A stretch of 11,888 bases of DNA from a virus (IMGVR_UViG_2896601577_000007); one strand, 5' to 3'; shown: positions 520 to 11,888, counted from the first letter of the stretch. Program-made: numbers and translations. The notes: generated from the sequence alone by a model not told the origin.

Positions 520-736
520 CATCCCACCATTTCAGGGCAATCAGCGCCTCAGCACGGGAAAGGGATATTCTCTGTATATCAGCATCCTCCCCACCAGCCA
601 CCCGGTATACCTCTGATAAATCACGAACATTTTTCATGTCTGCTTTCCCGGACGTTTCCATCAGTGCGTTAATATCATCCCCGTATAGCGTGATTGCGCG
701 ACGATACCAGCCAGAGAGATAACCATAGCCCGGCAT
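520..736 (-). CDS. 3' portion of the FtsH-like peptidase-domain gene, cut off by the IS2 end
   Basis: 72 codons of open frame run directly into the IS2 terminus at 519/520; the last 16 aa of the track ORF 470..736 are encoded by IS2 sequence. This frame is open upstream to 763 and overlaps the 661..1020 ORF. Confidence 0.45.
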
Positions 737-1020
737 ACCTGGTCTATCAGACGTAACCTGGTGTCATCATTCGAGAGGGTGTAAGACTTAACCTCAGCCA
801 CATTCCGTGGATAGTTGGCGTGCCATACCGCGACAGCTCCACATTCATCAACATCGCCGCTAAGGTAGGTTTTTGCCACTCGGTTATTACCCGATAACGC
901 AATTTCTACCTCCTGTATGCCGAAAAACCATGCGGCTATCGCATGACCTGCTTCATGTATTGCAAGATGTCTGGGCCAGCGATAGCTGCCGAACTCAATA
1001 ATGATGGGTTGCGTACTCAT
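661..1020 (-). CDS. Zn-metallopeptidase-like protein, FtsH/M41-type domain (HEAGH motif), possibly frameshifted
   Basis: LAIHEAGHAIAAWFFG followed by SLAGIVAQSRYTG resembles the FtsH protease-domain pattern (HEaGHA ... GGRaAE ... TG..DI). Internal ATG at 1020 is preceded by GAGGGA; the track ORF extends to 1098 without a Shine-Dalgarno sequence. Confidence 0.6.
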   Translation of the reverse strand: MSTQPIIIEFGSYRWPRHLAIHEAGHAIAAWFFGIQEVEIALSGNNRVAKTYLSGDVDECGAVAVWHANYPRNVAEVKSYTLSNDDTRLRLIDQVCRAMVISLAGIVAQSRYTGMILTH

Positions 1021-1030
1021 ATCTTCCCTC

Positions 1031-1465
1031 TCAGAATGGCGTTTCATTGTCGAATGGTGGGCGTTGGTCGTATTCATCACGGGATGGCTGCTGCGCACGT
1101 CTCAGCGCGTCCGTTGCCTGTCCCCGCTGTCCTGCCTTCCCGCCGGGGCGTACCGTTCTGGCGCTGATCACACTGTCGGCTACTACCTGATACCCCTGCT
1201 GTGTACCGCCGTCCTGCCCTGTCCACTGGTTGAGTTGCATATTGCCTGCCACGCTCACAAGGTCGCCTTTCTGGTGCTTTGCCAGCGCATCGGCCTGCTT
1301 CCCAAAAGCAATAACGCCCAGCCAGAAGGTTGACTCTCCCGCCTCTGCCGCATTACAGGGGAGAGACACCGCCAGCCGCGCCATAGCCATGTTGTTACCG
1401 TTCGTTGTGGTGCGGGTCTGGGGATCTGCCACCAGCCGCCCGTATGCTGAAATTTGTGCTGTCAT
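1031..1465 (-). CDS. ssb: Single-stranded DNA-binding protein-like (OB fold, acidic PF tail)
   Basis: 144 aa; OB-fold-like pattern (RLVADPQTR...NG...ARLAVSL...FWLGVIAFGKQADALAKHQKGDLVSVAGNMQLNQWTGQDGG..YQVVAD) and C-terminal ...PPFDNETPF similar to the SSB DDDIPF tail. GAGGGG Shine-Dalgarno sequence upstream of ATG at 1465. Confidence 0.65.
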   Translation of the reverse strand: MTAQISAYGRLVADPQTRTTTNGNNMAMARLAVSLPCNAAEAGESTFWLGVIAFGKQADALAKHQKGDLVSVAGNMQLNQWTGQDGGTQQGYQVVADSVISARTVRPGGKAGQRGQATDALRRAQQPSRDEYDQRPPFDNETPF

Positions 1466-1839: not shown

Positions 1840-2289
1840 TTATTCTTCTGGCTGGCTGCTTTCCTCTGCCATGAAATTGAGTACATAGACGCGAATCTGT
1901 CGCCCATCCTCCCTTACTCGCCCCTGATAGCCTCGCCCGCTCGTTGGTGGTGTAAGCATTCCTGCATTCTTTAGAACTTCGGCAAACTGTTTGGTATTGA
2001 AGCCCTTTGCAATCTCCTGCTCAAACGCTGCCGGGAAGGTGTAGAAAATTATCGGGTCGCCGTCGTGGTTCCCCTTCTTCCTGTACCCGGCTAAATCACG
2101 GATGGGTAAATCGCGCGGGTCATAACCCAGCGGCGCGAATCGACTCAGCCCATAGGCATTCAAAAACGCCTCCGTCTGCTCAATAATCTGCTGGTGCTCT
2201 TTGTTCCCCGTGCCGAACTCACGCAACCACGCATTGTAGCTGTGCTGTATCGCATCACGGCACGTTTGATCATCCCAGCCAGTAACCAC
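1840..2289 (-). CDS. Primase/helicase C-terminal fragment (third frame segment)
   Basis: GTG-initiated track ORF with no convincing Shine-Dalgarno sequence; its frame is open upstream to about 2394, overlapping the end of the 2334..3890 ORF. Confidence 0.55.
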   Translation of the reverse strand: MVTGWDDQTCRDAIQHSYNAWLREFGTGNKEHQQIIEQTEAFLNAYGLSRFAPLGYDPRDLPIRDLAGYRKKGNHDGDPIIFYTFPAAFEQEIAKGFNTKQFAEVLKNAGMLTPPTSGRGYQGRVREDGRQIRVYVLNFMAEESSQPEE

Positions 2290-2333
2290 GCCACCCAGCA
2301 GTAAAGCAGCCTCCAGAATGGCGAACCTTGCCC

Positions 2334-3890
2334 CTACACGGTGAACCTGTTCCCATAGTCGGCAGGAATAAGACTGCGCCAGCGGGCTTCACAGTCACGA
2401 ACGGTATCAATGGCCTGCTGCTGGTGGCCTGCAAGCCATCTGATCCACTCCCGCCCGGCAGCGCCGTGATTGCTCTGCCACGCGGATTTTAATGCGTCTG
2501 CATGGTCTTTCCCTGTCTGGTGCTCATGAAAGCGCACCGCCTTACTTAACGGGATATTCAGCAGGCGCACCAGTTGCCCCGCTTTTGTCTTGCGTCCTGC
2601 GGAGGCAATGAACGTTTCTAAATCCATTTCCCCGGTGCTGATTGCCACGGTACGCCAGCGTTTTAGATCCCGATTTCCGCCTTCTTTCGCGCCCTGCAAT
2701 TTCCCTACGCCGTTAAACAGGGCATAGGCAGACTGAGAAACGCTTATCGGGTCTGCGCCCTGTCCGACTTCATCCAGCGGCATCAGTCCGTCATTGTGGG
2801 CGGCGGCCTCGTTTATCATCCCCAGCGCCGTCCCGTACCACGTCAGGCGCAAGGCATCAGGGTTCCCGTATAGACTGCTAGCCACGTTCTGCGTGGTTGT
2901 TTTCCCGGCGCTCGATTGCTCATAAAAATGAATCCCGAATCCGTCACGCTCTGCCACCCCGATTAATGGCGCTGCCAGTGCTGCGGCAATGCCTGTCATC
3001 ATCGCGTAGTTGCCGTATGCCAGCCGCGCGACACTGTTGCGCCAGCTTTCCGGCGTTCCTGCTACGGTATACCCGGCAGCGGCTGAACTGCGCCCGCTGA
3101 ACAAAACAGGCCGCTCAGGTGTGCCGATGATTTCCCCGTCCGGCATGATGTATGCCCCGCACTGCCAGCCTGTAGCATGAGCAACGCGCCACAATTCACG
3201 CGAGCCGCTCCGCTGTAGCCAGTCGGCAAGGATCGCCCGTAAACTGCTTTTGGTCGTGACGTTAACCCCACCAGCTTTCAGGGTGCGCCAGCCTTCACGC
3301 TCGCCAATATCAGCCAGCGGGATAGCCGCTGTTGTCGGTATGCCTGCACCGAATGCCAGCCATGAGATAATAAGATACTGATCTTTGTCGTCGCGTCCCG
3401 TGCCGATAACCTCCAACGGGGAACATAACCAGCTTTCAGCGTTGACGATCTCCCCGCTTTCCTTGTCCACCTTCGGCGTTACCCAGAAAACGCCATCTTT
3501 GCGGCTCTCAATGTGGGGTTTTAGTGGATCTTTCTCTGGATGGTCAGTTTTACCGCCCTCAATGGCTTGCAATCGCGGTTTCACGGCTTCCCCTTGAATC
3601 TGGTACATCGAATCGTTAAACGCAGCCGTAGCGACTTCCAGCCCGTTTTGCTGGCGGTAATCGTCCCAGTCGGCTTTGTAGTCTGTCGGCGGCAGCGCCA
3701 CCCAGCCAGCCACGGATAAGGCGGCTTTCTCTGCGGCATCTTTGCCCGTGTTCGCCTGGTCGTCCTGCTGGTGGTCGTTATCTGCGGCAATGATAATCTG
3801 CGTGGCTGGATATATCCGGCGCATCACTTCGGCAACGGGTAGCAGGTTGCCCGCGTCAATTGCTGCCACTGCCAGCGCGTCCGGGCGCAT
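2334..3890 (-). CDS. Primase/helicase central fragment: distal TOPRIM (DxD) plus P-loop region (DUF927-like)
   Basis: IIIAADNDHQ (TOPRIM DxD) 37 aa after the annotated Met, and a Walker-A-like SSAGKTTT. Its ATG overlaps the stop of the upstream fragment (TGATG). The frame upstream of the Met encodes LATALSVHL, which continues the TOPRIM motif. Confidence 0.85.
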   Translation of the reverse strand: MRPDALAVAAIDAGNLLPVAEVMRRIYPATQIIIAADNDHQQDDQANTGKDAAEKAALSVAGWVALPPTDYKADWDDYRQQNGLEVATAAFNDSMYQIQGEAVKPRLQAIEGGKTDHPEKDPLKPHIESRKDGVFWVTPKVDKESGEIVNAESWLCSPLEVIGTGRDDKDQYLIISWLAFGAGIPTTAAIPLADIGEREGWRTLKAGGVNVTTKSSLRAILADWLQRSGSRELWRVAHATGWQCGAYIMPDGEIIGTPERPVLFSGRSSAAAGYTVAGTPESWRNSVARLAYGNYAMMTGIAAALAAPLIGVAERDGFGIHFYEQSSAGKTTTQNVASSLYGNPDALRLTWYGTALGMINEAAAHNDGLMPLDEVGQGADPISVSQSAYALFNGVGKLQGAKEGGNRDLKRWRTVAISTGEMDLETFIASAGRKTKAGQLVRLLNIPLSKAVRFHEHQTGKDHADALKSAWQSNHGAAGREWIRWLAGHQQQAIDTVRDCEARWRSLIPADYGNRFTV

Positions 3891-4597
3891 CAGGTGAACT
3901 GAAAGGGCCGTCGCCAGCCCTCGGCAATTAAAACGCTCTGCGGCGATTCTGGCGCGTTTACGGCGTGATATGCCCCGCGCTTTGCTGAACCTGTCAGGAG
4001 TCGCTTCTCTCCCTGCGGTGTAATGGTTTGCGCTGCTGCCACTGCGCCGGATTCGTCCACCAGCTCCAGCAATAACGAACCATCCGGCATAACCGGATAG
4101 TTAAACCCGGTCAGCCCTTTTGATTGCAGGTAATCAGATTCGCCCTGTGTGGCACTCTGGCGCATTCCGGCATACAGATGGGCAAACGTAGCCCTTCGCT
4201 GCTCTGCGTCCTCTGCTGCCTGTTTCTGGCGCTCCTGCTCACGCTGCTGGCGGTCAGCTTCCAGTTGCTCTCTTCTATGGCTCGCTGCCGCCGGGTCGGT
4301 TTGCGCTGCCCGGTAATCAATACCCAGCACGTCAGCGGCAAGCTGTGCCGCCTCCGTGGTGTCGCAGTTGTTTACCCGCTTGATTAAATCCAGCCCGTCA
4401 CCAGCGCCACACTGGTTGCAGATAAAGCTACCGCGCCCGTTGTCGTCGAATCTGAAACGGTCTTTTCCACCACATGCAGGGCATGGAGAATGGCGGCGCG
4501 ATGAATCAGGCACGTCGATAGACAATTCAGCCAGCACATAAGGCCAGCGCCCTGCTGCGGCGCTGGTCACTTCGCGGATAAGGTCGATATTACGCAT
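3890..4597 (-). CDS. Primase N-terminal fragment: Zn-ribbon plus start of TOPRIM (catalytic Glu)
   Basis: CPACGGKDRFRFDDNGRGSFICNQCGAGDGLDLI is a P4 alpha-type primase zinc-binding motif; the fragment ends ...SVLIAEG then WRRPFQFT*. ATG at 4597 is preceded by AGGAGG; the track ORF extends to 4630. Confidence 0.85.
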   Translation of the reverse strand: MRNIDLIREVTSAAAGRWPYVLAELSIDVPDSSRRHSPCPACGGKDRFRFDDNGRGSFICNQCGAGDGLDLIKRVNNCDTTEAAQLAADVLGIDYRAAQTDPAAASHRREQLEADRQQREQERQKQAAEDAEQRRATFAHLYAGMRQSATQGESDYLQSKGLTGFNYPVMPDGSLLLELVDESGAVAAAQTITPQGEKRLLTGSAKRGAYHAVNAPESPQSVLIAEGWRRPFQFT

Positions 4598-4666
4598 GGT
4601 TGCCTCCTGCCACGGTCGCGCCCATATCATTAATCATGCTTTGCCATATCTCGCGCCCGATGTCAG

Positions 4667-4930
4667 TCAATCCGTCCTTAGTGACGCAACGATCAAGAAG
4701 CTCGATCCCACGATTTCCCACTGCGGGTAGCGCACTTTCATGGCTGCCAGTGCGTAGCTATCAATCAGGCTGCGAACGCCTTTTACTCCATTGACGATTT
4801 CCACACGGACGGCGAGGCCGTCCGCATCAATCATGAAATAGTCCCCGCCGCTGGTGGAAGTAATGTGGTTATACAGTGCTGCCGCATACTTATTCGCCAG
4901 CGCATTCAGTCGGAAATTTTTAGTAATCAT
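4667..4930 (-). CDS. Hypothetical protein (87 aa), last gene before the primase
   Basis: ORF with GAGGGG Shine-Dalgarno sequence 4 nt upstream of ATG 4930; 8-nt gap after the upstream gene's stop. Confidence 0.6.
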   Translation of the reverse strand: MITKNFRLNALANKYAAALYNHITSTSGGDYFMIDADGLAVRVEIVNGVKGVRSLIDSYALAAMKVRYPQWEIVGSSFLIVASLRTD

Positions 4931-4938
4931 GTCGCCCC

Positions 4939-5541
4939 TCAGTGCGCCAGCGCCATTTCAGGCCAGCCGTTTTCATTCAGTTCAGCTATAAAGCTGTTGT
5001 GAAGTTCAGCAAGCGTTTCACGACCAAATGGAGTCAGTGCTCCTTGTTCCACATCCATCATGGCTCTGTAGAAAATGATGGCGCGTTCTGTGCCAGACTC
5101 GATGCCAAAACGTTCTATCATCGCGCCCTCAATGTTGTTTGCCATAGCGAGGCGCTCTGCTACTGGATACAGCGGCATGGCGACGATGCCGTTGGAATAA
5201 ACAGCCACTTCGGAAGGATTGCCAGTATCATCAATGATGCTGACAGTGCCGTTTTCCTCTCTCATTTCCAGCATGAATACTGTTGCGATCAGCCAGCGCC
5301 ACATAATCACGTGATGCTGTGATGTGTAATCGAAATATCCCTGGTTGCCGCCACTGGCAATAGCGAGATGTATAAACATGCCTTCATCTGGTTTATCGTC
5401 ATAATCCCCGGCATCCAGACGATTTACGGCATCAATATATGAGACGGTCTCAACGCGTTCTGTCATGCCATCGTTGCTGCGGTACATGATGTTTACGCCG
5501 CCAGGCGTTGCTTCTGCATGGAACGTTAAGAAATTATTCAT
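4939..5541 (-). CDS. Hypothetical protein (200 aa)
   Basis: Internal ATG at 5541 preceded by GAGG, overlapping the upstream gene's stop by 8 nt; the track ORF extends to 5646 with no Shine-Dalgarno sequence. Confidence 0.65.
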   Translation of the reverse strand: MNNFLTFHAEATPGGVNIMYRSNDGMTERVETVSYIDAVNRLDAGDYDDKPDEGMFIHLAIASGGNQGYFDYTSQHHVIMWRWLIATVFMLEMREENGTVSIIDDTGNPSEVAVYSNGIVAMPLYPVAERLAMANNIEGAMIERFGIESGTERAIIFYRAMMDVEQGALTPFGRETLAELHNSFIAELNENGWPEMALAH

Positions 5542-5755
5542 GTTTCGCCTCGCCTGAATGATTCTGTAACTCATATTTGCCCAACAATTCGTCAGCTTCC
5601 TGAATAGCTTCTGGTACGCCATTGAGCAGTGACATAACCGCGCCAATCATTAACTTGTCTCTGTTGCTGGGGCTGGCCCCTTCAAGCCAGAACCCTAAAA
5701 CAGTCTGAACCTGTTCGATGCGACATTGCGCTTCAATGAGCTGGATGTTGGTCAT
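5534..5755 (-). CDS. Hypothetical small protein (73 aa)
   Basis: ATGA start/stop overlap with the upstream gene; GGAG 8 nt upstream. Confidence 0.6.
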   Translation of the reverse strand: MTNIQLIEAQCRIEQVQTVLGFWLEGASPSNRDKLMIGAVMSLLNGVPEAIQEADELLGKYELQNHSGEAKHE

Positions 5756-6015
5756 TTCGCACTCTCCACATCGATTAAACTGATATCTATCAGGGAGGTA
5801 ACTTTTTGTAGCCAGCTATTGATTACTGTCGCCTGTTCCCCTCCCACCGAGGGAACAATCTCATTCATCACATGAACCAGACCTGTGCGCGCTCTGGTAA
5901 GCCGTTCAGTCGCGCAATCTGCGGGAGTGAATGTGTCTGGATATGGCTCTTCGCGCCCCAGCAATGATTCAATTTCCAGCTCACACGGATGACGATAAAT
6001 TAAGTTGATATTCAT
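5752..6015 (-). CDS. Hypothetical small protein (87 aa)
   Basis: ATGA overlap with the upstream gene; GGGGGTG Shine-Dalgarno sequence upstream of ATG 6015. Confidence 0.6.
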   Translation of the reverse strand: MNINLIYRHPCELEIESLLGREEPYPDTFTPADCATERLTRARTGLVHVMNEIVPSVGGEQATVINSWLQKVTSLIDISLIDVESAK

Positions 6016-6206
6016 TTTTCACCCCCAAGAATTACCAGCTCTGCACGGGCATCGTTAACCAAAGATGAGCACGCTTTAATCGCATCCACGACATCAGCAG
6101 CGTCCATTTCTTCAGCCGAAAGACTGACAGCAACCAGGACAGCCGCTGTTTGCTCGATTAATTGAAGTGCGGACGTAAGGCGAGGGGTATTAATTGAGTT
6201 ATTCAT
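6012..6206 (-). CDS. Hypothetical small protein (64 aa)
   Basis: ATG at 6206 preceded by a G-rich Shine-Dalgarno-like run, 8-nt overlap with the upstream gene's stop; the track ORF extends to 6263. Confidence 0.55.
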   Translation of the reverse strand: MNNSINTPRLTSALQLIEQTAAVLVAVSLSAEEMDAADVVDAIKACSSLVNDARAELVILGGEK

Positions 6207-6417
6207 TGGTTGCCCCCCGTTTTCCTGACATTTCGCCACCTTCCAGCAGGAAATGAACGTCACGAACGGCGAGATCCAATATCGCGAGTAACGCCTTCAG
6301 TTTTTCGTCTCGTGAGGGAGAGTTGCTCACCAGAATGTCATTAATCACTTCTGTCAGTGTGATGATCTGGCTTGTGCGTTCGAGGGGATCCATATGCACA
6401 TCGTAGGTTTTAATCAT
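6199..6417 (-). CDS. Hypothetical small protein (72 aa)
   Basis: ATG at 6417 preceded by GGAGGTG; overlaps the stop of the first operon gene by 8 nt; the track ORF extends to 6507. Confidence 0.6.
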   Translation of the reverse strand: MIKTYDVHMDPLERTSQIITLTEVINDILVSNSPSRDEKLKALLAILDLAVRDVHFLLEGGEMSGKRGATNE

Positions 6418-6604
6418 GTGCCACCTCCATGCGGATACGACCAGCAAAAAAGCAGACGTGATCGCGCACCAGAGAACGGCGAGCATCGCGTTCAGACTCG
6501 GCAGCAATATGATGAATTTTGGCGGTAATTGTCGGGCAATCGCGGCGAACTGCGGCGATAATCCAGATAAATTGCGGTTTTTGGGTAGGGGTAGTAGCCA
6601 GCAT
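6410..6604 (-). CDS. Hypothetical small protein (64 aa), first gene of the small-gene operon
   Basis: ATG at 6604 with AAGGAGG (rc of 6613..6619) 8 nt upstream (MLATTPTQKPQFIWIIAAVRRD...). This is the 3' end of the track ORF 6410..7165, which I do not accept as a single CDS. Confidence 0.6.
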   Translation of the reverse strand: MLATTPTQKPQFIWIIAAVRRDCPTITAKIHHIAAESERDARRSLVRDHVCFFAGRIRMEVAHD

Positions 6605-6631
6605 AGCGGCAGCCTCCTTTGTGTTTAAGGA

Positions 6632-6670
6632 GTCACCGCCTGAGTTTCCACGCTCTGAAATGGCGGTGAC
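6632..6670 (-). promoter_or_regulatory. 9-bp-stem hairpin in the 5' leader, just upstream of the Shine-Dalgarno sequence of the first operon gene
   Basis: GTCACCGCC (6632..6640) and GGCGGTGAC (6662..6670) are perfect inverted repeats around a 21-nt loop; a 5-bp stem with UUCG loop on the minus-strand RNA lies at 6711..6724. Confidence 0.35.
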
Positions 6671-6793
6671 GTTAGCAGGGGTGGAAATACCGGACACAAA
6701 GGAAACCGGCCTACGCGAACGTAGCCCCACTAACGCCACCATTGATACAGTACGGACTAGGCCGCTGATTTGATGTGCGTAGTGATCGGACAC

Positions 6794-6816
6794 AAAAAAA
6801 GACGCTTTCGGCGTCT
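6794..6816 (-). terminator. Intrinsic-terminator-like hairpin followed by a U-run (minus strand)
   Basis: Minus-strand RNA reads AGACGC-CGAAA-GCGUCU followed by UUUUUU (plus-strand A-run 6794..6799). Confidence 0.5.
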
Positions 6817-7103
6817 GTGTCGCCCTGAGTGTGTTCGGGTTTCCACGCCCGGTTGCTGATTTTGCAGCAACGCTTGGACTATAACAGCTTTTCTCTGCTA
6901 GGTGGTCATACCAGATAAAACCGTAACCCTTTAAGAGTTTTTCCTGTGCACGGCTCACCATCTTTTTGTTGAGGGTAAGCGCCTCGCGTACTGGTAACGG
7001 AACTCCGGGCGCTGCGGTATCAATATCAGGTTTTATAAGGTTGTAAGGGTTAACATTTGTTAACAGGCCAGCCAGATTAAAGGCTTCTTTCTGGGCGGCA
7101 GGT

Positions 7104-7286
7104 TCATTCAGTATCACGGCGCACCTCCACGAACTCATTAACGAATCTCTCCAAAGGCTGAACACATGGCGACTGATAGCCCTCGCGGTAAAAGGTCACT
7201 CGGTTATGCTCGACGCGCTCAACGGTCACTACAGCCCCGTGCGAATCCTTGTAACGGCTTCCCGGCATCGGATTGTGGTTACGCAT
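7104..7286 (-). CDS. Hypothetical small protein (60 aa)
   Basis: GGAGG 5 nt upstream of ATG 7286; overlaps the stop of the upstream 50-aa ORF by 8 nt. Confidence 0.55.
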   Translation of the reverse strand: MRNHNPMPGSRYKDSHGAVVTVERVEHNRVTFYREGYQSPCVQPLERFVNEFVEVRRDTE

Positions 7287-7431
7287 GGTTTACCTCCAGA
7301 CGTTTAGCGAGCCAGCGTTGCGACAGGCGGGTGAGTTCTCCTTTGCGCTGCTCATATTCCATGCCCATATCAATTAACGTGATATTGGTGCTTTCGAGAT
7401 AGGCGAGGTGTTCAAGCTGTGCTGCGTTCAT
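7279..7431 (-). CDS. Hypothetical small protein (50 aa), below the ORF-track length cutoff
   Basis: Hand translation of the minus strand: MNAAQLEHLAYLESTNITLIDMGMEYEQRKGELTRLSQRWLAKRLEVNHA; its stop overlaps the 7104..7286 start region. Confidence 0.4.
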   Translation of the reverse strand: MNAAQLEHLAYLESTNITLIDMGMEYEQRKGELTRLSQRWLAKRLEVNHA

Positions 7432-7470
7432 GCTGTCCCGTGGTTCGCCAGTAATGCCATTTGCCTGCGC

Positions 7471-8088
7471 TCACTGCTTCGCCGTCATGCCACCCAGCAC
7501 GATACGGGCGATCATGTTGCTCTCGTTGCTGTAGTGGCGCTGCTGCGTCGTTTTGCCCATCTCGGCACGGGCCATATTCAGCGCATCGCACATTGGCTTA
7601 AAGTTGTTTGCGGCACTGAGACGGGCTTTTAGCTGGCGACGATAGCGGGCGGCGATTTCAGGCACGCTACGCTGTAATTCTTCCTCGCACTGGATGAAAT
7701 AACGGCGGATAGCGCGGCCCTGCTCGTTGCGTTCAACCATTGCCACTTCTTTAGCCATATCCAGCGATAGCAGGTAATCATGCTCTATTTGCTGGCGAGT
7801 TTTTGCGCTCGCCCGTTTTGGCGTGCTCAAATTTTCAACACGGATAAAATCGGTTCCGGCAATAAAACCGTACTGGTCAATTCGGCCTTTAATCCAGTTA
7901 GTAAAGTCGCGGCCCACCCCCAGCGCTTTATGCAACGCCTTAGCGCTCACAATATTGGCTTCACGCCCGCCAATGCGTCCGGCAATAACGGGAACAATAG
8001 CGGCAAAGTCGTTGCCGTTAATTACTCCCGTGTTAACGTTGGGTTGCGGGGCGGCCCCCGAACTGAATCGGCTTTTTTCGATAGTCAT
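7471..8088 (-). CDS. Phage antirepressor-like protein (AntA-type N-terminal domain)
   Basis: VSAKALHKALGVGRDFTNWIKGRIDQYGFIAGTDFI resembles the AntA/antirepressor motif. ATG 8088 is preceded by GGAG; the track ORF extends to 8148 and would overlap the upstream gene. Confidence 0.7.
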   Translation of the reverse strand: MTIEKSRFSSGAAPQPNVNTGVINGNDFAAIVPVIAGRIGGREANIVSAKALHKALGVGRDFTNWIKGRIDQYGFIAGTDFIRVENLSTPKRASAKTRQQIEHDYLLSLDMAKEVAMVERNEQGRAIRRYFIQCEEELQRSVPEIAARYRRQLKARLSAANNFKPMCDALNMARAEMGKTTQQRHYSNESNMIARIVLGGMTAKQ

Positions 8089-8101
8089 ATTTTCGGCTCC
8101 G

Positions 8102-8533
8102 TTATGCGGCGGTGAGATTGTCCGGGTATAGATTGAGAATGTCGGCAATTTCAGGCTGAGAAAGTCCCTGATAGCCGCCAGCGTCGGCGTTATGGTTCAC
8201 AAGCCGAATAACTTTTAGAACGTCACCGCGCCCGGTAAAGCGATAGCGTAAATGTGGCCCTATCCCGTCGGGGTTCTTTTCGTCTATACGCTCAAGCTGA
8301 ATATCAAGCCTGCGCTCTAACTCGCTGGCGTAGTTCCTTCCAGACGAAAGGCGGCAATAACGCAGAATGTCATTTTCTGTCCATCCCTCTATACCAGTAC
8401 GCAGCATATAGACTCTGGCACGATGCTTTTTCGGTGTGCGCTTTGGTGCTTGAAGGGATTTTGTAAGGGGCGTAACATCAGATACGCGAATATCTGAATT
8501 AGCCGCCTGTAATGGGCGGTTTTTCTTTTCCAT
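8102..8533 (-). CDS. Hypothetical protein (143 aa), translationally coupled to alpA
   Basis: Its start shares one nucleotide with the alpA stop (TGATG). Confidence 0.6.
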   Translation of the reverse strand: MEKKNRPLQAANSDIRVSDVTPLTKSLQAPKRTPKKHRARVYMLRTGIEGWTENDILRYCRLSSGRNYASELERRLDIQLERIDEKNPDGIGPHLRYRFTGRGDVLKVIRLVNHNADAGGYQGLSQPEIADILNLYPDNLTAA

Positions 8534-8736
8534 CAGGCCACCTTCCCGCGGCGTTCTGCCAGCCAGTTGTGAATCTCAACCGCATCAAACGCAGTTATTT
8601 TTTCTCCCAGCTTTACCGGACGTGGTAGTGAACCGTTTCTTACTTTACGGTCGATGGTGGATACACTAACGCCCAGCAATTCAGCCAGGCGGAAGCGTCT
8701 GATATAGCCTTTTGTAGGGATAGTGTCGATGTTCAT
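8533..8736 (-). CDS. alpA: AlpA/Vis-family helix-turn-helix transcriptional regulator
   Basis: 67 aa; RFRLAELLGVSVSTIDRKVRNGSLPRPVKLGEKITAFDAVEIHNWL is a typical AlpA (P4 Vis / CP4-57 AlpA) signature. Confidence 0.9.
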   Translation of the reverse strand: MNIDTIPTKGYIRRFRLAELLGVSVSTIDRKVRNGSLPRPVKLGEKITAFDAVEIHNWLAERRGKVA

Positions 8737-8860: not shown

Positions 8861-9229
8861 CCCTGCCGTGGTGCGTTCTTCCGGTGTTCTGTCTGCGTCG
8901 GCTATGAGTTTCTTCAGGTAATCTATGGATGGCTCATCATAGCCGCCCCCCAAAAGCGCCCAGTGGTTTATTGTGGCGTTCGCCCATGCTTCGTTGGTTT
9001 CCTTCCCGTTCTTCCCTTTACACTCTTCTGGGTAGTGCCGCTTCACATAAATCAACGCCAAGAGGCAAATTTCGCGCTTTTGCCTGTGGCGCTCTCTGTT
9101 TCCGTGCTCAACGTTTTTAACATCCTCATAAAGAGCTTGTAAGTTTATGCGAGTTTCGGGGCTGTATATGGGCTGGTTTTTGTCCATGCATTCGCCGATA
9201 TATTCAACCCACGGCCTTGTTATGTACAA
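8849..9229 (-). CDS. Hypothetical protein (126 aa, TTG start in track); possibly the frameshifted 3' part of the IS1-disrupted cargo gene
   Basis: ORF in AT-richer DNA with no recognised motif; weak start signals; the frame is open upstream to 9346, overlapping the end of the cargo gene. Confidence 0.45.
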   Translation of the reverse strand: MYITRPWVEYIGECMDKNQPIYSPETRINLQALYEDVKNVEHGNRERHRQKREICLLALIYVKRHYPEECKGKNGKETNEAWANATINHWALLGGGYDEPSIDYLKKLIADADRTPEERTTAGKKR

Positions 9230-9234
9230 ATCCT

Positions 9235-9401
9235 CTACGGATATTTCGTGGAAGGCATGTTTTGTATAATCGAGAAAAAATAATAATTCGCACTTACGTC
9301 TAGTTCTCTTTTTCTGTGTGCGGGGCTGAATATGCGTGCGGGAGTGTCAATAGAATCAAGCCCTGCGATGTCGAGTATATAGGAGGCGTTAACATGCCAT
9401 A
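9235..9401 (-). pseudogene. 3' part of the integrase-proximal cargo gene interrupted by IS1
   Basis: Same reading frame as 10179..10473 once IS1 and one target-site duplication copy (777 nt) are removed; the reconstructed ORF is 153 aa. Confidence 0.6.
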
Positions 9402-9410
9402 GCCCAAGCA
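9402..9410. repeat. IS1 target-site duplication, left copy (GCCCAAGCA)
   Basis: Identical 9-mer directly flanks both IS1 ends. Confidence 0.85.
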
Positions 9411-9465
9411 GGTAATGCTGCCAACTTACTGATTTAGTGTATGATGGTGATTTTAAGGTGCTTGC

Positions 9466-9741
9466 GTGGCTTCCATTTCCATCAGATGTCCTTCCTGCTC
9501 CGCTACTGAAGGCGTGGTGCGTAACGGCAAAAGCACTGCCGGACATCAGCGCTATCTCTGCTCTCATTGCCGTAAAACATGGCAACTACAGTTCACTTAC
9601 ACCGCCTCTCAGCCCGGTACGCACCAGAAAATCATTGATATGGCCATGAATGGCGTCGGATGTCGCGCCAGTGCACGCATTATGGGCGTTGGCCTCAACA
9701 CGGTTTTACGTCACTTAAAAAACTCAGGCCGCAGTCGGTAA
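9466..9741 (+). CDS. insA: IS1 InsA (91 aa, GTG start)
   Basis: [66 protein letters not shown]... closely matches IS1 InsA. Confidence 0.9.
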
Positions 9742-10163
9742 CCTCGCGCATACAACCGGGCAGTGATGTGATTGTCTGCGCTGAAATGGACGAACAGTGG
9801 GGCTACGTCGGTGCTAAATCACGTCAGCGCTGGCTGTTTTACGCGTATGACAGGATACGGAGGAGGGTTGTGGCGCACGTCTTCGGTGAACGCACTCTGG
9901 CCACACTGGAGCGTCTTCTGAGCCTGCTGTCGGCCTTTGAGGTCGTGGTATGGATGACGGATGGCTGGCCGCTGTATGAATCACGCCTGAAGGGAAAGCT
10001 GCACGTTATCAGCAAGCGTTACACTCAGCGCATTGAGCGACATAATCTGAATCTGAGACAACATCTGGCAAGGCTGGGACGGAAGTCACTGTCGTTCTCA
10101 AAATCGGTGGAGCTGCATGACAAGGTCATCGGGCATTATCTGAACATAAAACACTATCAGTAA
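9660..10163 (+). CDS. insB: IS1 InsB (167 aa), transposase catalytic part
   Basis: ...[58 protein letters not shown]...[13 protein letters not shown] matches IS1 InsB with several substitutions. Confidence 0.9.
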
Positions 10164-10178
10164 GTTGGAGTCATTACC

Positions 10179-10187
10179 GCCCAAGCA
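10179..10187. repeat. IS1 target-site duplication, right copy (GCCCAAGCA)
   Basis: Identical to 9402..9410. Confidence 0.85.
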
Positions 10188-10473
10188 CATGGCAATCTAT
10201 ATGATTTACAACGCCTGCCTTAAAGCTTTTTTCGTCCTCTACTTCAGTGATTATGTCGGCAAGTAACAAGCAGTCGTCTTTGACGTCTGGGAATAAAGAG
10301 CAATTGCGATAAAGACTCGCGATGCTATGTAATGTGCCGTCGTAGCCGCAAAGGTACGCGCTCAAATATATAGATTCTGCCGCCGCCATAATCAAAAGAT
10401 CATCAATATCTATTTCTAATAATTCGGCTGCTCTGTTAAGCCTGAAAAAAGGGGCGGGTGGTAATTTTTTCAT
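10179..10473 (-). pseudogene. 5' part of the integrase-proximal cargo gene interrupted by IS1
   Basis: ATG 10473 preceded by AAGGTGA; 98 codons, then the frame runs into the IS1 right end. AT-richer than the rest of the element by eye. No recognised motif (MKKLPPAPFFRLNRAAELLEIDIDDLLIMAAAES...). Confidence 0.65.
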
Positions 10474-10505
10474 TGCGTCACCTTTTACGCTGCGCCTTAT
10501 TTTGT

Positions 10506-10561
10506 GATTGAGCCAGGCGGTAAGGCTTCCCGCTTTTCGCCCCGTCGAGCTAGGCTCAATC
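10506..10561. repeat. 9-bp inverted repeat GATTGAGCC / GGCTCAATC separated by 38 nt, between the int stop and the cargo gene start
   Basis: Perfect 9-bp arms at 10506..10514 and 10553..10561; no flanking U-run on either strand. Confidence 0.4.
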
Positions 10562-10568
10562 TATTCAG

Positions 10569-11828
10569 TTAGTTCGCCCTTCTGAGAGGCGTTACGTTGT
10601 AGTCTTTTCCGCTTTCCAGTGCCACTAGCAGATCAGCCCACTGTGCCAGTGCTGCTTTACGCTCATCAAAATACTGATGGCGGTTATAAATCCCCTCTAC
10701 GCCCTTAATGCGATGATTGAGGCATCGTTCCGCCACAACAGGATCAACACCCAACGCTGCTAAATGAGTACGTGCGGTGCGTCGAAAGTCGTGAATCGTG
10801 AAATTAGGCACATCCGGCATTTCGGCGCGAACCTTAGCCAGTGCTACGGGTAAAGTGCTTTCCTGAATATGTGGGATCATTCTGTTTTGCATCTTCCTGG
10901 CCGGAAGCACCCATGCGCTATTACATGAAAAGGTGTGTAGCTCTCTCAACCATTCAACGGCTGGGGAAGGTAGAGGTATATCAATAGGGTCTCCGTTTTT
11001 GCTGCGTTCTTCCGGCAAATGCCATACCGCACCATCTAAATCAAACTCTTCCCATCGTGCGGCGCATAATTCCATTTTGCGGACGCATAACGCTAACAGT
11101 AATTTGAACGTGATTTCGTTCTGGCGACTGAATCCCTTAGCCGTGCGCATGGCTTTGAATAGCTGGATTAACTCATCGCGGGTTAACCAGCGGTCACGGG
11201 CAGCTTCTTTCCCTCCGGCGTCTGCCACCTCAAAGGCTGAACAGGGGTTAATCTCTAGCGCGTGCCGTTTGATTCCGTAGTCGAATATGCGGCGCGTCCA
11301 TCTCAGCACGTCCGTTGCTATGGTCGGCGCTCCACGGTCAACAATACCTTTCAGCATGTCATCGATATGGCGCGGTTTCACGTCCTCTACCTTCATGCTG
11401 CCAATGCAGGGGTTTATATCTTTGTCGATACGGCGGCGGAGTATATCGGGGTGCTTCCAGCGCGGGAGGATCTGACGCTCAAAGTATTCAGCGGCAAGCT
11501 CTGAAACGCGCATAGCGTTCTTCTCTGCTTCCATCTTCGCCAGTGCTTCGGTTTTGTGCTTCTGCTTCTCTCCTGCAACGTCATAGCCCAGCGCAACGCG
11601 AGCCGATAGCTCTTTGGCTGTCTCTCTGGCCTTTGATAGTGATAGCTCGCTATACGAACCAATTAGCATGGCGCGGGACTTCCCTGCGAGTTTATAGCGG
11701 AATCTCCATGTGGGGGTTTTGTCGGCTTCACGGTAACGTAGGTATAAACCGTTACCGTCTGCCCGCCCCTCGAATCGCTCTCCGCTCTTAATCCATGCGC
11801 GGATCTGCATGTCTGTTAGTTTTGGCAT
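10569..11828 (-). CDS. int: P4-type tyrosine integrase (site-specific recombinase)
   Basis: 419 aa from MPKLTDMQIRAWIKSG...; N-terminal P4-like arm-binding region (GNGLYLRYR...WRFRYK) and C-terminal catalytic region (HDFRRTARTH...LNH...IYNRHQY). The track ORF extends 20 codons further to the window edge. Confidence 0.95.
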   Translation of the reverse strand: MPKLTDMQIRAWIKSGERFEGRADGNGLYLRYREADKTPTWRFRYKLAGKSRAMLIGSYSELSLSKARETAKELSARVALGYDVAGEKQKHKTEALAKMEAEKNAMRVSELAAEYFERQILPRWKHPDILRRRIDKDINPCIGSMKVEDVKPRHIDDMLKGIVDRGAPTIATDVLRWTRRIFDYGIKRHALEINPCSAFEVADAGGKEAARDRWLTRDELIQLFKAMRTAKGFSRQNEITFKLLLALCVRKMELCAARWEEFDLDGAVWHLPEERSKNGDPIDIPLPSPAVEWLRELHTFSCNSAWVLPARKMQNRMIPHIQESTLPVALAKVRAEMPDVPNFTIHDFRRTARTHLAALGVDPVVAERCLNHRIKGVEGIYNRHQYFDERKAALAQWADLLVALESGKDYNVTPLRRAN

Positions 11829-11858
11829 TTTGCGAATATCCAAACTTTGAATAGGGGG

Positions 11859-11882
11859 TGTACCCAAAGCAATGTACCCAAA
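11859..11882. repeat. Direct repeat TGTACCCAAA x2 (14-bp spacing) upstream of the int start
   Basis: Copies at 11859..11868 and 11873..11882, in the int 5' region at the window edge. Confidence 0.35.
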
Positions 11883-11888
11883 CCTCAT

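Follow-up and report, generated by a model that had tools for sequence, protein, structure and literature searches.

The 11,888-nucleotide (nt) viral sequence IMGVR_UViG_2896601577_000007, analysed here over its whole length and referred to throughout as the window, carries on its minus strand, between positions 4667 and 6604, seven consecutive small genes, g1 to g7, that lie upstream of a primase gene. They form part of a longer succession of features, which runs from an integrase gene (int) through an int-alpA RNA, IS1, AlpA, an open reading frame (ORF) of 143 amino acids (aa), AntA/AntB, DUF4222, an eta-like ORF with an Icd-family gene, g2 to g7 and the primase to SSB. We consider it likely that a satellite prophage related to P4, and resembling the Gram-negative phage-inducible chromosomal islands (PICIs), has its early operon in this region, and that the operon is gated by a cis-encoded antisense RNA of the C4/CI type. 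Both the regulatory design and the class of element are already known; what is new is the evidence for covariation between the RNA loop and the ribosome-binding site (RBS) in 16 elements, the cassette array that extends from icd to g6/g7, the linkage of g6 with g7, and the defects of this particular copy.

A translationally coupled string that extends into the primase

The genes g1 (6410-6604, 64 aa), g2 (6199-6417, 72 aa), g3 (6012-6206, 64 aa), g4 (5752-6015, 87 aa), g5 (5534-5755, 73 aa) and g6 (4939-5541, 200 aa), together with a seventh ORF representing g7 (4667-4930, 87 aa), all on the minus strand, have exactly the positions and sizes given in the original prediction, which had been made from the sequence alone. 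The overlaps listed there are equally exact, namely ATGA at 5752-5755 and 6012-6015 and 8 nt at 5534-5541, 6199-6206 and 6410-6417, and a purine-rich stretch resembling a Shine-Dalgarno sequence is found 5-12 nt before every start. The translational coupling that had been proposed on these grounds is real and conserved. In the equivalent chains of 19 related loci, which represent about a dozen genera, overlaps of -4 or -8 account for 78 of 91 junctions, a count that is biased somewhat upward by the preference of the ORF chain-caller for starts near the preceding stop. The overlap pattern of the coupled string is not due to chance.

A frameshift reduces the seventh ORF to a fragment. The g7 gene of relatives encodes 113 aa and is intact (8924-9265 in the related locus L001, 8471-8812 in L002), which corresponds to 4590-4930 on the minus strand of the window. 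Here a GGGG run near 4710 is one G short, and the gene is split into ORFs 4667-4930 and 4590-4721, the latter of which holds the C-terminus. Once the frame is corrected, the TAA of g7 (4590-4592) overlaps the ATG of the primase (4597-4595) by 8 nt, so that the primase, too, belongs to the coupled string.

The operon first delimited at 4667-6604 was right as to the coupled string but too short as a transcription unit, which starts at or upstream of 6886 and continues into the primase; a scan of the minus strand within 4667-6604 found neither promoter-like nor terminator-like sites. For annotation, the string from icd to the primase is best read as a single unit in which the seventh "gene" of the window is a fragment.

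The label "ORFan", which had been applied to all seven genes, is wrong, since g1 belongs to a named family, the block is common in E. coli and homologues of g6 and g7 are widespread. Of 5426 complete E. coli genomes, 568 have a match to the block, mostly at 95-99% identity, and in 477 of them the match extends over at least 80% of it; the g2-g5 block is found in 490 (about 9%), always at 97% identity or more. Searches of the seven proteins against Pfam, NCBIfam, PHROGs and PADLOC assigned a named family to g1 alone. This small protein is basic (isoelectric point, pI, 9.5) and matches the NCBIfam model NF033153, "host cell division inhibitor Icd-like", with 71.7 bits against a cutoff of 25, over model positions 1-48 of 48. 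It is 43% identical to the 3' end of P4 kil/eta (P4 8195-8368), and an Icd-like gene stands first in all 19 chains surveyed. By family membership, g1 would be expected to inhibit host cell division.

An antisense-RNA module directly upstream of g1

The original prediction overlooked the control region at 6605-6886, which lies directly upstream of g1. Read along the minus strand, it opens with a putative extended -10 promoter element, TGTTATAGT (6878-6886), which would be the counterpart of P4 PLE. The transcription start predicted from it, at about 6871, is the first base of an isrK/seqA-like leader RNA (6795-6871, minus strand; Rfam RF01394, 72.1 bits against a gathering threshold, GA, of 50). 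A terminator scan places an intrinsic terminator at the close of the isrK match (stem 6816-6800 on the minus strand, followed by a T-run), and a c4-a1b1 target motif (Rfam RF03163, 55.1 bits) spans 6832-6884 on the same strand. Within the leader lies the upstream target a1, GTGGAAA, at 6846-6840 (minus strand).

Between the leader and g1, on the minus strand at 6659-6746, is the antisense RNA of the C4/CI type (Rfam RF01695, 80.3 bits, GA 45, E 7e-15), which matches its model over the full length, positions 1-87. Its predicted architecture is that of a C4 RNA, with a long closing stem and two hairpins (minimum free energy fold, -38.9 kcal/mol), a loop, b', at nt 42-53 and a single-stranded segment, a', at nt 60-66. 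The downstream target region (6605-6652, minus strand), equivalent to seqC or a2-b2, directly precedes g1. Here a2, GTGGAAA (6651-6645, minus strand), is the exact 7-nt complement of a', as is a1 at 7 of 7 positions, while b2, ACACAAAGGA (6624-6615, minus strand), is the exact 10-nt complement of loop nt 44-53 and overlaps the Shine-Dalgarno sequence of g1, AAGGAGG (6619-6613). Two duplexes were predicted, at -32.3 kcal/mol for the C4 RNA with the downstream target region and at -31.6 kcal/mol, and these values were matched by 2 and 4 of 500 shuffles, respectively. Judged by sequence, the parts of a C4/CI module are all present: the RNA itself, an upstream target with its terminator, and a downstream target over the first RBS.

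In 16 related modules, including that of P4, the leader is preceded by a promoter of the form TTGCC-17 nt-TATGGT/TATAGT. Compared with these loci, the window keeps only the -10 element and the TG (TGTTATAGT), and the sequence upstream has been replaced, which suggests a recombination breakpoint inside the promoter (6878-6940, minus strand).

Compensatory changes in the RNA and its targets

When a covariance model was built on the stretch from C4 to the g1 ATG, it retrieved 17 modules, of which 16 are distinct; they come from P4, the window, relatives in E. coli and eight other genera, with Klebsiella, Kosakonia, Lonsdalea, Pluralibacter, Erwinia, Xenorhabdus and Morganella among the sources. 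Because the alignment was fitted to the structure of C4 and not to the trans pairs, the latter constitute a fair test of the pairing. Changes on both sides were observed in 15 of 27 pairs of the internal C4 helices (99-100% of cells paired), in 8 of the 12 trans pairs between b' and b2 (88% paired), and in 6 of the 7 between a' and a2 (100% paired). The covariation score of the whole structure was reached in none of 500 column shuffles, and pairing fell to 37-48% when the partners were slid by 1-3 columns. In the upstream target, a1 is complementary to a' at 7 of 7 positions in 16 of the 17 modules and at 6 of 6 in the remaining one, with b1 located 16 nt beyond a1 in most modules.

An alternative hairpin, in which the 3' strand of C4 pairs downstream (6670-6662 with 6640-6632) and places a2 in the loop, is also conserved across the modules; it is 97.9% paired, and 5 of its 9 pairs are compensatory.

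As read from the alignment, the compensatory changes support pairing between the C4 RNA and the g1 RBS in 16 distinct elements including P4, and indicate that each element has its own matched pair of loop and target, as expected of immunity specificity. These covarying loops and targets define types of immunity by which such satellites could be classified.

A long reading frame across the RNAs

The same RNAs are crossed by a long eta-like ORF (6410-7117, minus strand), which comprises 235 codons from an in-frame GTG at 7117 and lies in a frame that is open to 7165. It extends across both the leader and the C4 RNA, holds g1 nested in frame at its 3' end, and overlaps the DUF4222 gene by 14 nt. 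Residues 79-182, which correspond to the RNA region (window 6572-6883, minus strand), match Pfam Phage_ASH with 83.3 bits. An open frame of at least 354 nt passes through C4 in all 17 modules, and in 12 of them it is the frame of icd. In L001, the long ORF (10536-11603) is out of the icd frame, and RefSeq names it "ash family protein" with an end at the g2 stop.

The Phage_ASH domain amounts to a conceptual translation of the region of the isrK/seqA, C4 and seqC RNAs, and RefSeq calls of "ash family protein" and of long "Icd-like" coding sequences overlie the immunity RNAs. Constraints on the RNA may largely account for the conservation of this "protein family", and annotators should be aware that the "ash family protein" calls sit over an immunity RNA region.

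Comparison with P4, P1/P7, Gifsy-1 and the PICIs

The C4 and isrK models are described as recognising RNAs related to the CI immunity RNA and to its seqA target (PMC10111431, PMC4825925), and the CI/seqA/eta/kil arrangement of P4 has been summarised together with C4 and isrK matches in Gram-negative PICIs (PMC10111431). The left operon of P4 (PLE, seqA, cI, seqC, kil/eta, epsilon, orf151, orf106, alpha) has the same order as the window, that is, a promoter, a seqA-like leader with its terminator, the CI/C4 RNA, an RBS target, Kil/Icd within an eta-like ORF, coupled genes and a primase. In P4, the same C4 and isrK models match at 8420-8507 and 8615-8692, the positions of CI and seqA, and 8-nt overlaps likewise occur, between cI and epsilon and between epsilon and orf151. 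By tblastn, the window resembles P4 in Int (26%), Vis/AlpA (35%) and residues 5-311 of alpha (33-39%).

There are, however, several differences from P4. The primase of the window type is about 140 aa longer than alpha and is named in RefSeq, for intact relatives, as carrying TOPRIM and DUF927 domains; AntA/AntB and DUF4222 are situated between alpA and the eta-like ORF; and the sequences of loop and target are not those of P4, which implies that immunity has a different specificity. Neither tblastn nor hhalign related g2-g7 to P4 epsilon, orf151 or orf106, except for a weak match between g6 and orf106. The original prediction had likened the position of the genes to the early operon of P4-like satellites. 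As to position, the C4 and isrK matches, the likeness of g1 to kil, the nesting within a Phage_ASH frame and the alpha-like N-terminus of the primase all agree with it, whereas g2-g7 show no detectable relation to epsilon and orf151.

As to the element itself, P4-like in the strict sense could not be upheld. No tblastn match (E<=1e-3) to sid, delta, psu, epsilon, orf151, orf106, cII, gop or beta was obtained in the window, L001 or L002, an absence that is firm only for the relatives, of which L002 is a whole related element, since the window is cut by IS2. Lacking sid, delta and psu, the element is PICI-like instead. Gram-negative PICIs are described as having four zones, Integration, Bro, Replication and Late (PMC10111431, PMC13612085), and those of Enterobacter have been listed with integrase, AlpA and primase and with AntA/AntB, Icd and PerC accessory genes (PMC13612085). 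The window follows this order, with int and alpA, a Bro zone (AntA/AntB, Phage_ASH, C4/isrK), and then primase and SSB, and PerC is also present in L002. Two differences stand out: the small-gene array between icd and the primase is undescribed in these accounts (PMC10111431, PMC13612085), and the window, ending in IS2, shows no late or packaging zone. It reaches IS2 about 0.6 kb past SSB, and in L002 the sequence beyond SSB holds only PerC and hypothetical proteins.

The immI region of P1/P7 (c4, icd, ant) also has an RNA of the C4 family with a' and b' segments, and a1/b1 lie upstream and a2/b2 downstream over the RBS of an Icd-family ORF, as in the window; the likeness is one seen through the RF01695, RF03163 and NF033153 models only. 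In the c4-icd-ant operon of P1, translational repression leads to Rho-dependent termination, and the genes beyond icd in P1/P7 need icd to be translated. In contrast to P1/P7, which are plasmid prophages, the window represents an integrated satellite with a P4-type integrase, and the genes that follow its icd are not an antirepressor, AntA/AntB being found upstream instead.

A third comparison is offered by the isrK-orf45-anrP-isrJ region of Gifsy-1, where IsrK is a structural homologue of P4 seqA and AUGA-coupled translation of a downstream gene has been shown (PMC4825925). Gifsy-1 shares with the window an IsrK-type leader and terminator (72 bits in the window) and, next to it, a small ORF whose translation is required for that of the AUGA-coupled gene that follows (PMC4825925). 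IsrK of Gifsy-1 is, however, a trans activator of translation, whereas the leader of the window is paired with a C4 RNA and an Icd-like ORF, which is the repressive logic of P4 and P1. The downstream genes of Gifsy-1 also differ from those of the window.

A proposed mechanism

In the quiescent state, a weak constitutive promoter at TGTTATAGT (6886-6878) would yield a leader transcript that would either end at the terminator (6816-6800) or be processed, as we presume, to the C4-like RNA of about 88 nt (6746-6659). Segments a' and b' would pair with a1 in the leader and with a2/b2 before g1, and would thereby mask the g1 Shine-Dalgarno sequence. With translation of g1 blocked, g2-g7 and the primase would receive no ribosomes, because each gene starts within or beside the preceding stop codon. 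By analogy with the precedents of P1 and P4, the untranslated RNA would then be terminated prematurely through Rho-dependent polarity.

The block could be overridden by transcription that comes from alpA, the 143-aa ORF, AntA/AntB and DUF4222; the genes at 7104-8736 are co-directional and lead into the eta-like ORF. Ribosomes crossing this ORF (7117-6410) would open the RNA structures, and expression would run through the coupled string to the primase and SSB. Among the proteins released in this way, g1 would by its family inhibit division and g2-g5, which vary between loci, would, as we infer, be small acidic binding proteins; the g6-g7 pair by the primase would be produced as well.

Several observations weigh against this reading. 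The promoter consists of an extended -10 element only, the -35 element conserved in relatives being missing from the window, and a strict sigma-70 scan made no call at TGTTATAGT. In the window copy, the upstream target is degenerate in its b1 half, which is only partly complementary; b1 is also degenerate in L014, a locus with the same specificity as the window. The long ORF is out of the icd frame in 5 of the 17 modules, and eta/kil nesting is hence not universal. Finally, this copy bears disabling mutations, and the mechanism may describe intact relatives rather than the present locus.

The g6-g7 pair

At the primase end of the string, g6 is a strongly acidic protein with a net charge of about -19. 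Its gene is the last of the array in 18 of 19 chains, and g7 starts 10-16 nt later. Homologues of g6 form 547 clusters in Enterobacteriaceae, and those of the frameshift-corrected g7 form 170 clusters in Enterobacterales, reaching out to Yersinia and Xenorhabdus; a profile search of 1.8 billion representatives yielded only 59 relatives of g7. Each of the two proteins matches a PHROG family of unknown function, and their profiles found nothing credible among PDB sequences. AlphaFold2 returned a good model of g7 (predicted local distance difference test, pLDDT, 91.9) and a poor one of g6 (62.7). Homologues of g6 also occur in the early-left regions of phiP27 and of Stx and Klebsiella phages.

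The two genes are joined in nature. One protein (P0259, 336 aa; E 2e-35 to g6) is a full g6+g7 fusion, and another (P0282, 142 aa) is a hybrid of the g6 N-terminus with the g7 C-terminus. A g7-like domain is moreover found at the C-terminus of an ORF6N (Bro-network) protein (P0286, 314 aa) and attached to a primase zinc ribbon (P0291, 190 aa). Some of these four fusions may be products of rearrangement or assembly. We infer that the conserved pair of g6 and g7 probably works as a complex next to the primase. Whether the two are paralogues was also considered, and was not established: BLAST gave E 0.01 and a G-x-LT-x-x-GRE motif is shared, but hhalign gave a probability of 2.3%.

The position of the pair raises the question as to whether g6 and g7, and possibly other small genes, are accessory factors of the primase, such as a loader or an origin-binding or regulatory protein, rather than effectors directed at the host or helper. 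They stand immediately before the primase in about 20 loci of many genera, the 8-nt overlap between the g7 stop and the primase start is found in L002 as in the corrected window, and both the g6-g7 fusion and the joining of a primase zinc ribbon to a g7-like domain in P0291 would fit such a role. In P4, orf106 (DUF5375; L003 6984-7304) occupies the same position, and residues 131-186 of g6 show a weak hhalign match to its product (probability 21%, E 1e-3); the family PF17345 is among the precomputed annotations of 2 of 120 g6 homologues. This link was not reproduced by hmmscan, however, and deepening of the DUF5375 alignment gave only near-identical P4 copies. In addition, the pair occurs without this primase at about a dozen loci of Xenorhabdus and one of Rahnella, g6 is found alone in the early-left region of phiP27 beside xis and int, both proteins are acidic and lack a recognisable DNA-binding or NTPase motif, and P0291 resembles a rearrangement product. 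A role as primase accessory factors is consequently judged unlikely, although it survives better than the other alternatives discussed below.

Among the Xenorhabdus loci (L017-L029), the g6-g7 pair is sometimes present twice per genome. At L021 (6532-8345), it lies behind an ORF of about 286 aa with an antirepressor-like N-terminus, without a TOPRIM/DUF927 primase.

A variable array of small acidic proteins

In the 19 chains that run from icd to g7, gene content is shuffled between Icd, which is first, and g6/g7, which are last. One to seven genes per locus lie between Icd and g6, and are drawn from about 15 families mostly of 55-100 aa. The products of g2-g6 in the window are all acidic (pI 4.2-5.0), and g2 to g5 are each members of this variable array.

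The g2 protein (family F7) has homologues at 38-48% identity in Pluralibacter, Symbiopectobacterium and Buttiauxella, and gave no match in Pfam, NCBIfam, PHROG, PADLOC or PDB. The g3 protein (family F10) has a homologue at 59% in Enterobacter adelaidei and no match in PDB; a TY-Chap1 match was rejected at 17 bits against a cutoff of 27. The g4 protein (family F3) is among the commoner members of the array, with homologues at 48-54% in Kosakonia, Lonsdalea and Enterobacter; its match to the designed Kelch protein 7ong in PDB is an artefact in which no single stretch passes alone. The g5 protein (family F2) belongs to a small superfamily with F14 and F8 (hhalign, 86.6% for F2-F14 and 69% for F8-F14), matches phrog_20558 (E 2.9e-9), a PHROG of unknown function, and has homologues at 38-49% in eight genera; a word-index search returned close relatives of it only. 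Searched singly against PDB sequences, g2-g5 gave nothing credible, and for g2-g7 as a whole no family, defence-system, PDB or fold match pointed to a function.

In E. coli records H9 and H40, one variant within the g2-g5 block has been given, by RefSeq and UniRef, the name "nicotinic acetylcholine receptor subunit beta". The 117-aa g5 relative P0312 bears this name, which is an evident mis-annotation.

As to their proposed roles, g2-g5 would be interchangeable cassettes whose products most likely bind host or helper-phage proteins, in takeover, derepression or counter-defence; small effectors interfering with helper phage or host had also been expected here in the original prediction. Beyond this, we tentatively propose that the stretch from Icd to g6-g7 is a hot spot of cassette exchange, shuffled among satellites and released as a whole by one antisense-RNA switch. 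At least some of the roughly 15 families would then be new inhibitors of helper phage or host (derepressors, takeover or anti-defence proteins), and g6-g7 would be a new module in which the g7 fold, one without a solved relative, also serves as a domain of antirepressor-like proteins of the Bro network (ORF6N).

An alternative explanation would be that the array is a toxin-antidote or abortive-infection module, in which an Icd/Kil-like toxin is neutralised by the small acidic proteins and which acts in anti-phage defence. P4 Kil has been described as a cell-killing function (PMC10111431), g1 is basic while g2-g6 are acidic, and satellites often carry defence genes (PMC9122126, PMC13586616). 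Yet no significant PADLOC match was found, the best being a sub-threshold one of a CARF model to g3 (E 0.004, 53 aa). The gene that follows icd also varies by element (F7, F4, F3, F2, F6, F8 or F16), unlike a fixed toxin-antidote pair, and this explanation is accordingly regarded as improbable.

That some of the small ORFs are not genes at all, their frames being open by chance or through RNA constraint in a long pre-primase leader, can hardly be maintained: they are indeed short and without family annotation, and g2-g5 are nearly invariant in E. coli (at least 97% identity), so that dN/dS against close relatives is uninformative because of too few substitutions, but each of g2-g7 has protein homologues of similar length at 26-60% identity in other genera, the starts with Shine-Dalgarno sequences and the -4/-8 overlaps are conserved in 19 loci, g5, g6 and g7 match PHROG families, and g7 folds with high confidence.

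The operon ties a well-understood RNA switch (P4 CI, P1 c4) to unstudied small proteins, which roughly a tenth of the complete E. coli genomes and many other Enterobacterales carry. Should helper phages or host defences prove to be the targets of these proteins, the array would offer new phage-host interaction factors in compact form.

Decay of the window copy

The primase gene (1840-4597, minus strand), of the TOPRIM and DUF927 type by its RefSeq names and about 919 aa long in relatives, is read in the window in three frames (tblastn frames -2, -1 and -3), with GGGG shortened to GGG near 3921 and 2355. Relative to L002, all three frameshifts, one in g7 and two in the primase, are GGGG to GGG contractions. 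Such uniformity could reflect homopolymer sequencing error rather than mutation, and slippage mutation would be indistinguishable from it by sequence. The AntA/AntB gene, however, carries an in-frame TGA (7471-7473, minus strand), which splits it into ORFs 7471-8148 and 7279-7431, and a nonsense change of this kind cannot be a homopolymer artefact. Taken with the flanking IS1 and IS2, it makes real decay of the element likely. With g7 and the primase frameshifted, AntA/AntB interrupted and insertion sequences on its flanks, the unit in the window is probably no longer a working replicon. The window is also a mosaic: its identity to L001 is 97%, over 4603-6617 only, and on the primase side its identity to L002 is about 94%.

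IS1 lies at about 9400-10200, between int with the int-alpA RNA and alpA, and its insA and insB ORFs (9466-9741 and 9660-10163) are on the plus strand. Remnants of IS2 orfA at 1-473 are themselves frameshifted.

Neighbouring genes

The int gene (10569-11888) faces inward, and the int-alpA RNA (10494-10560, minus strand; Rfam RF02996, 60.6 bits), which is also present in L002, lies just downstream of it. Also on the minus strand are AlpA (8533-8736; Pfam Phage_AlpA), the 143-aa ORF (8102-8533), AntA/AntB (7282-8088; Pfam AntA) and DUF4222 (7104-7286; Pfam). Beyond the primase, SSB (1031-1465; Pfam SSB) is followed downstream by a 145-aa ORF with an HEAGH motif (661-1098, minus strand), which has a sub-threshold match to Peptidase_M50B (16.8 bits against a cutoff of 26). 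The same gene order is found in E. coli relatives and in Kosakonia, Klebsiella, Lonsdalea, Pluralibacter, Tatumella, Enterobacter, Morganella, Providencia and others.

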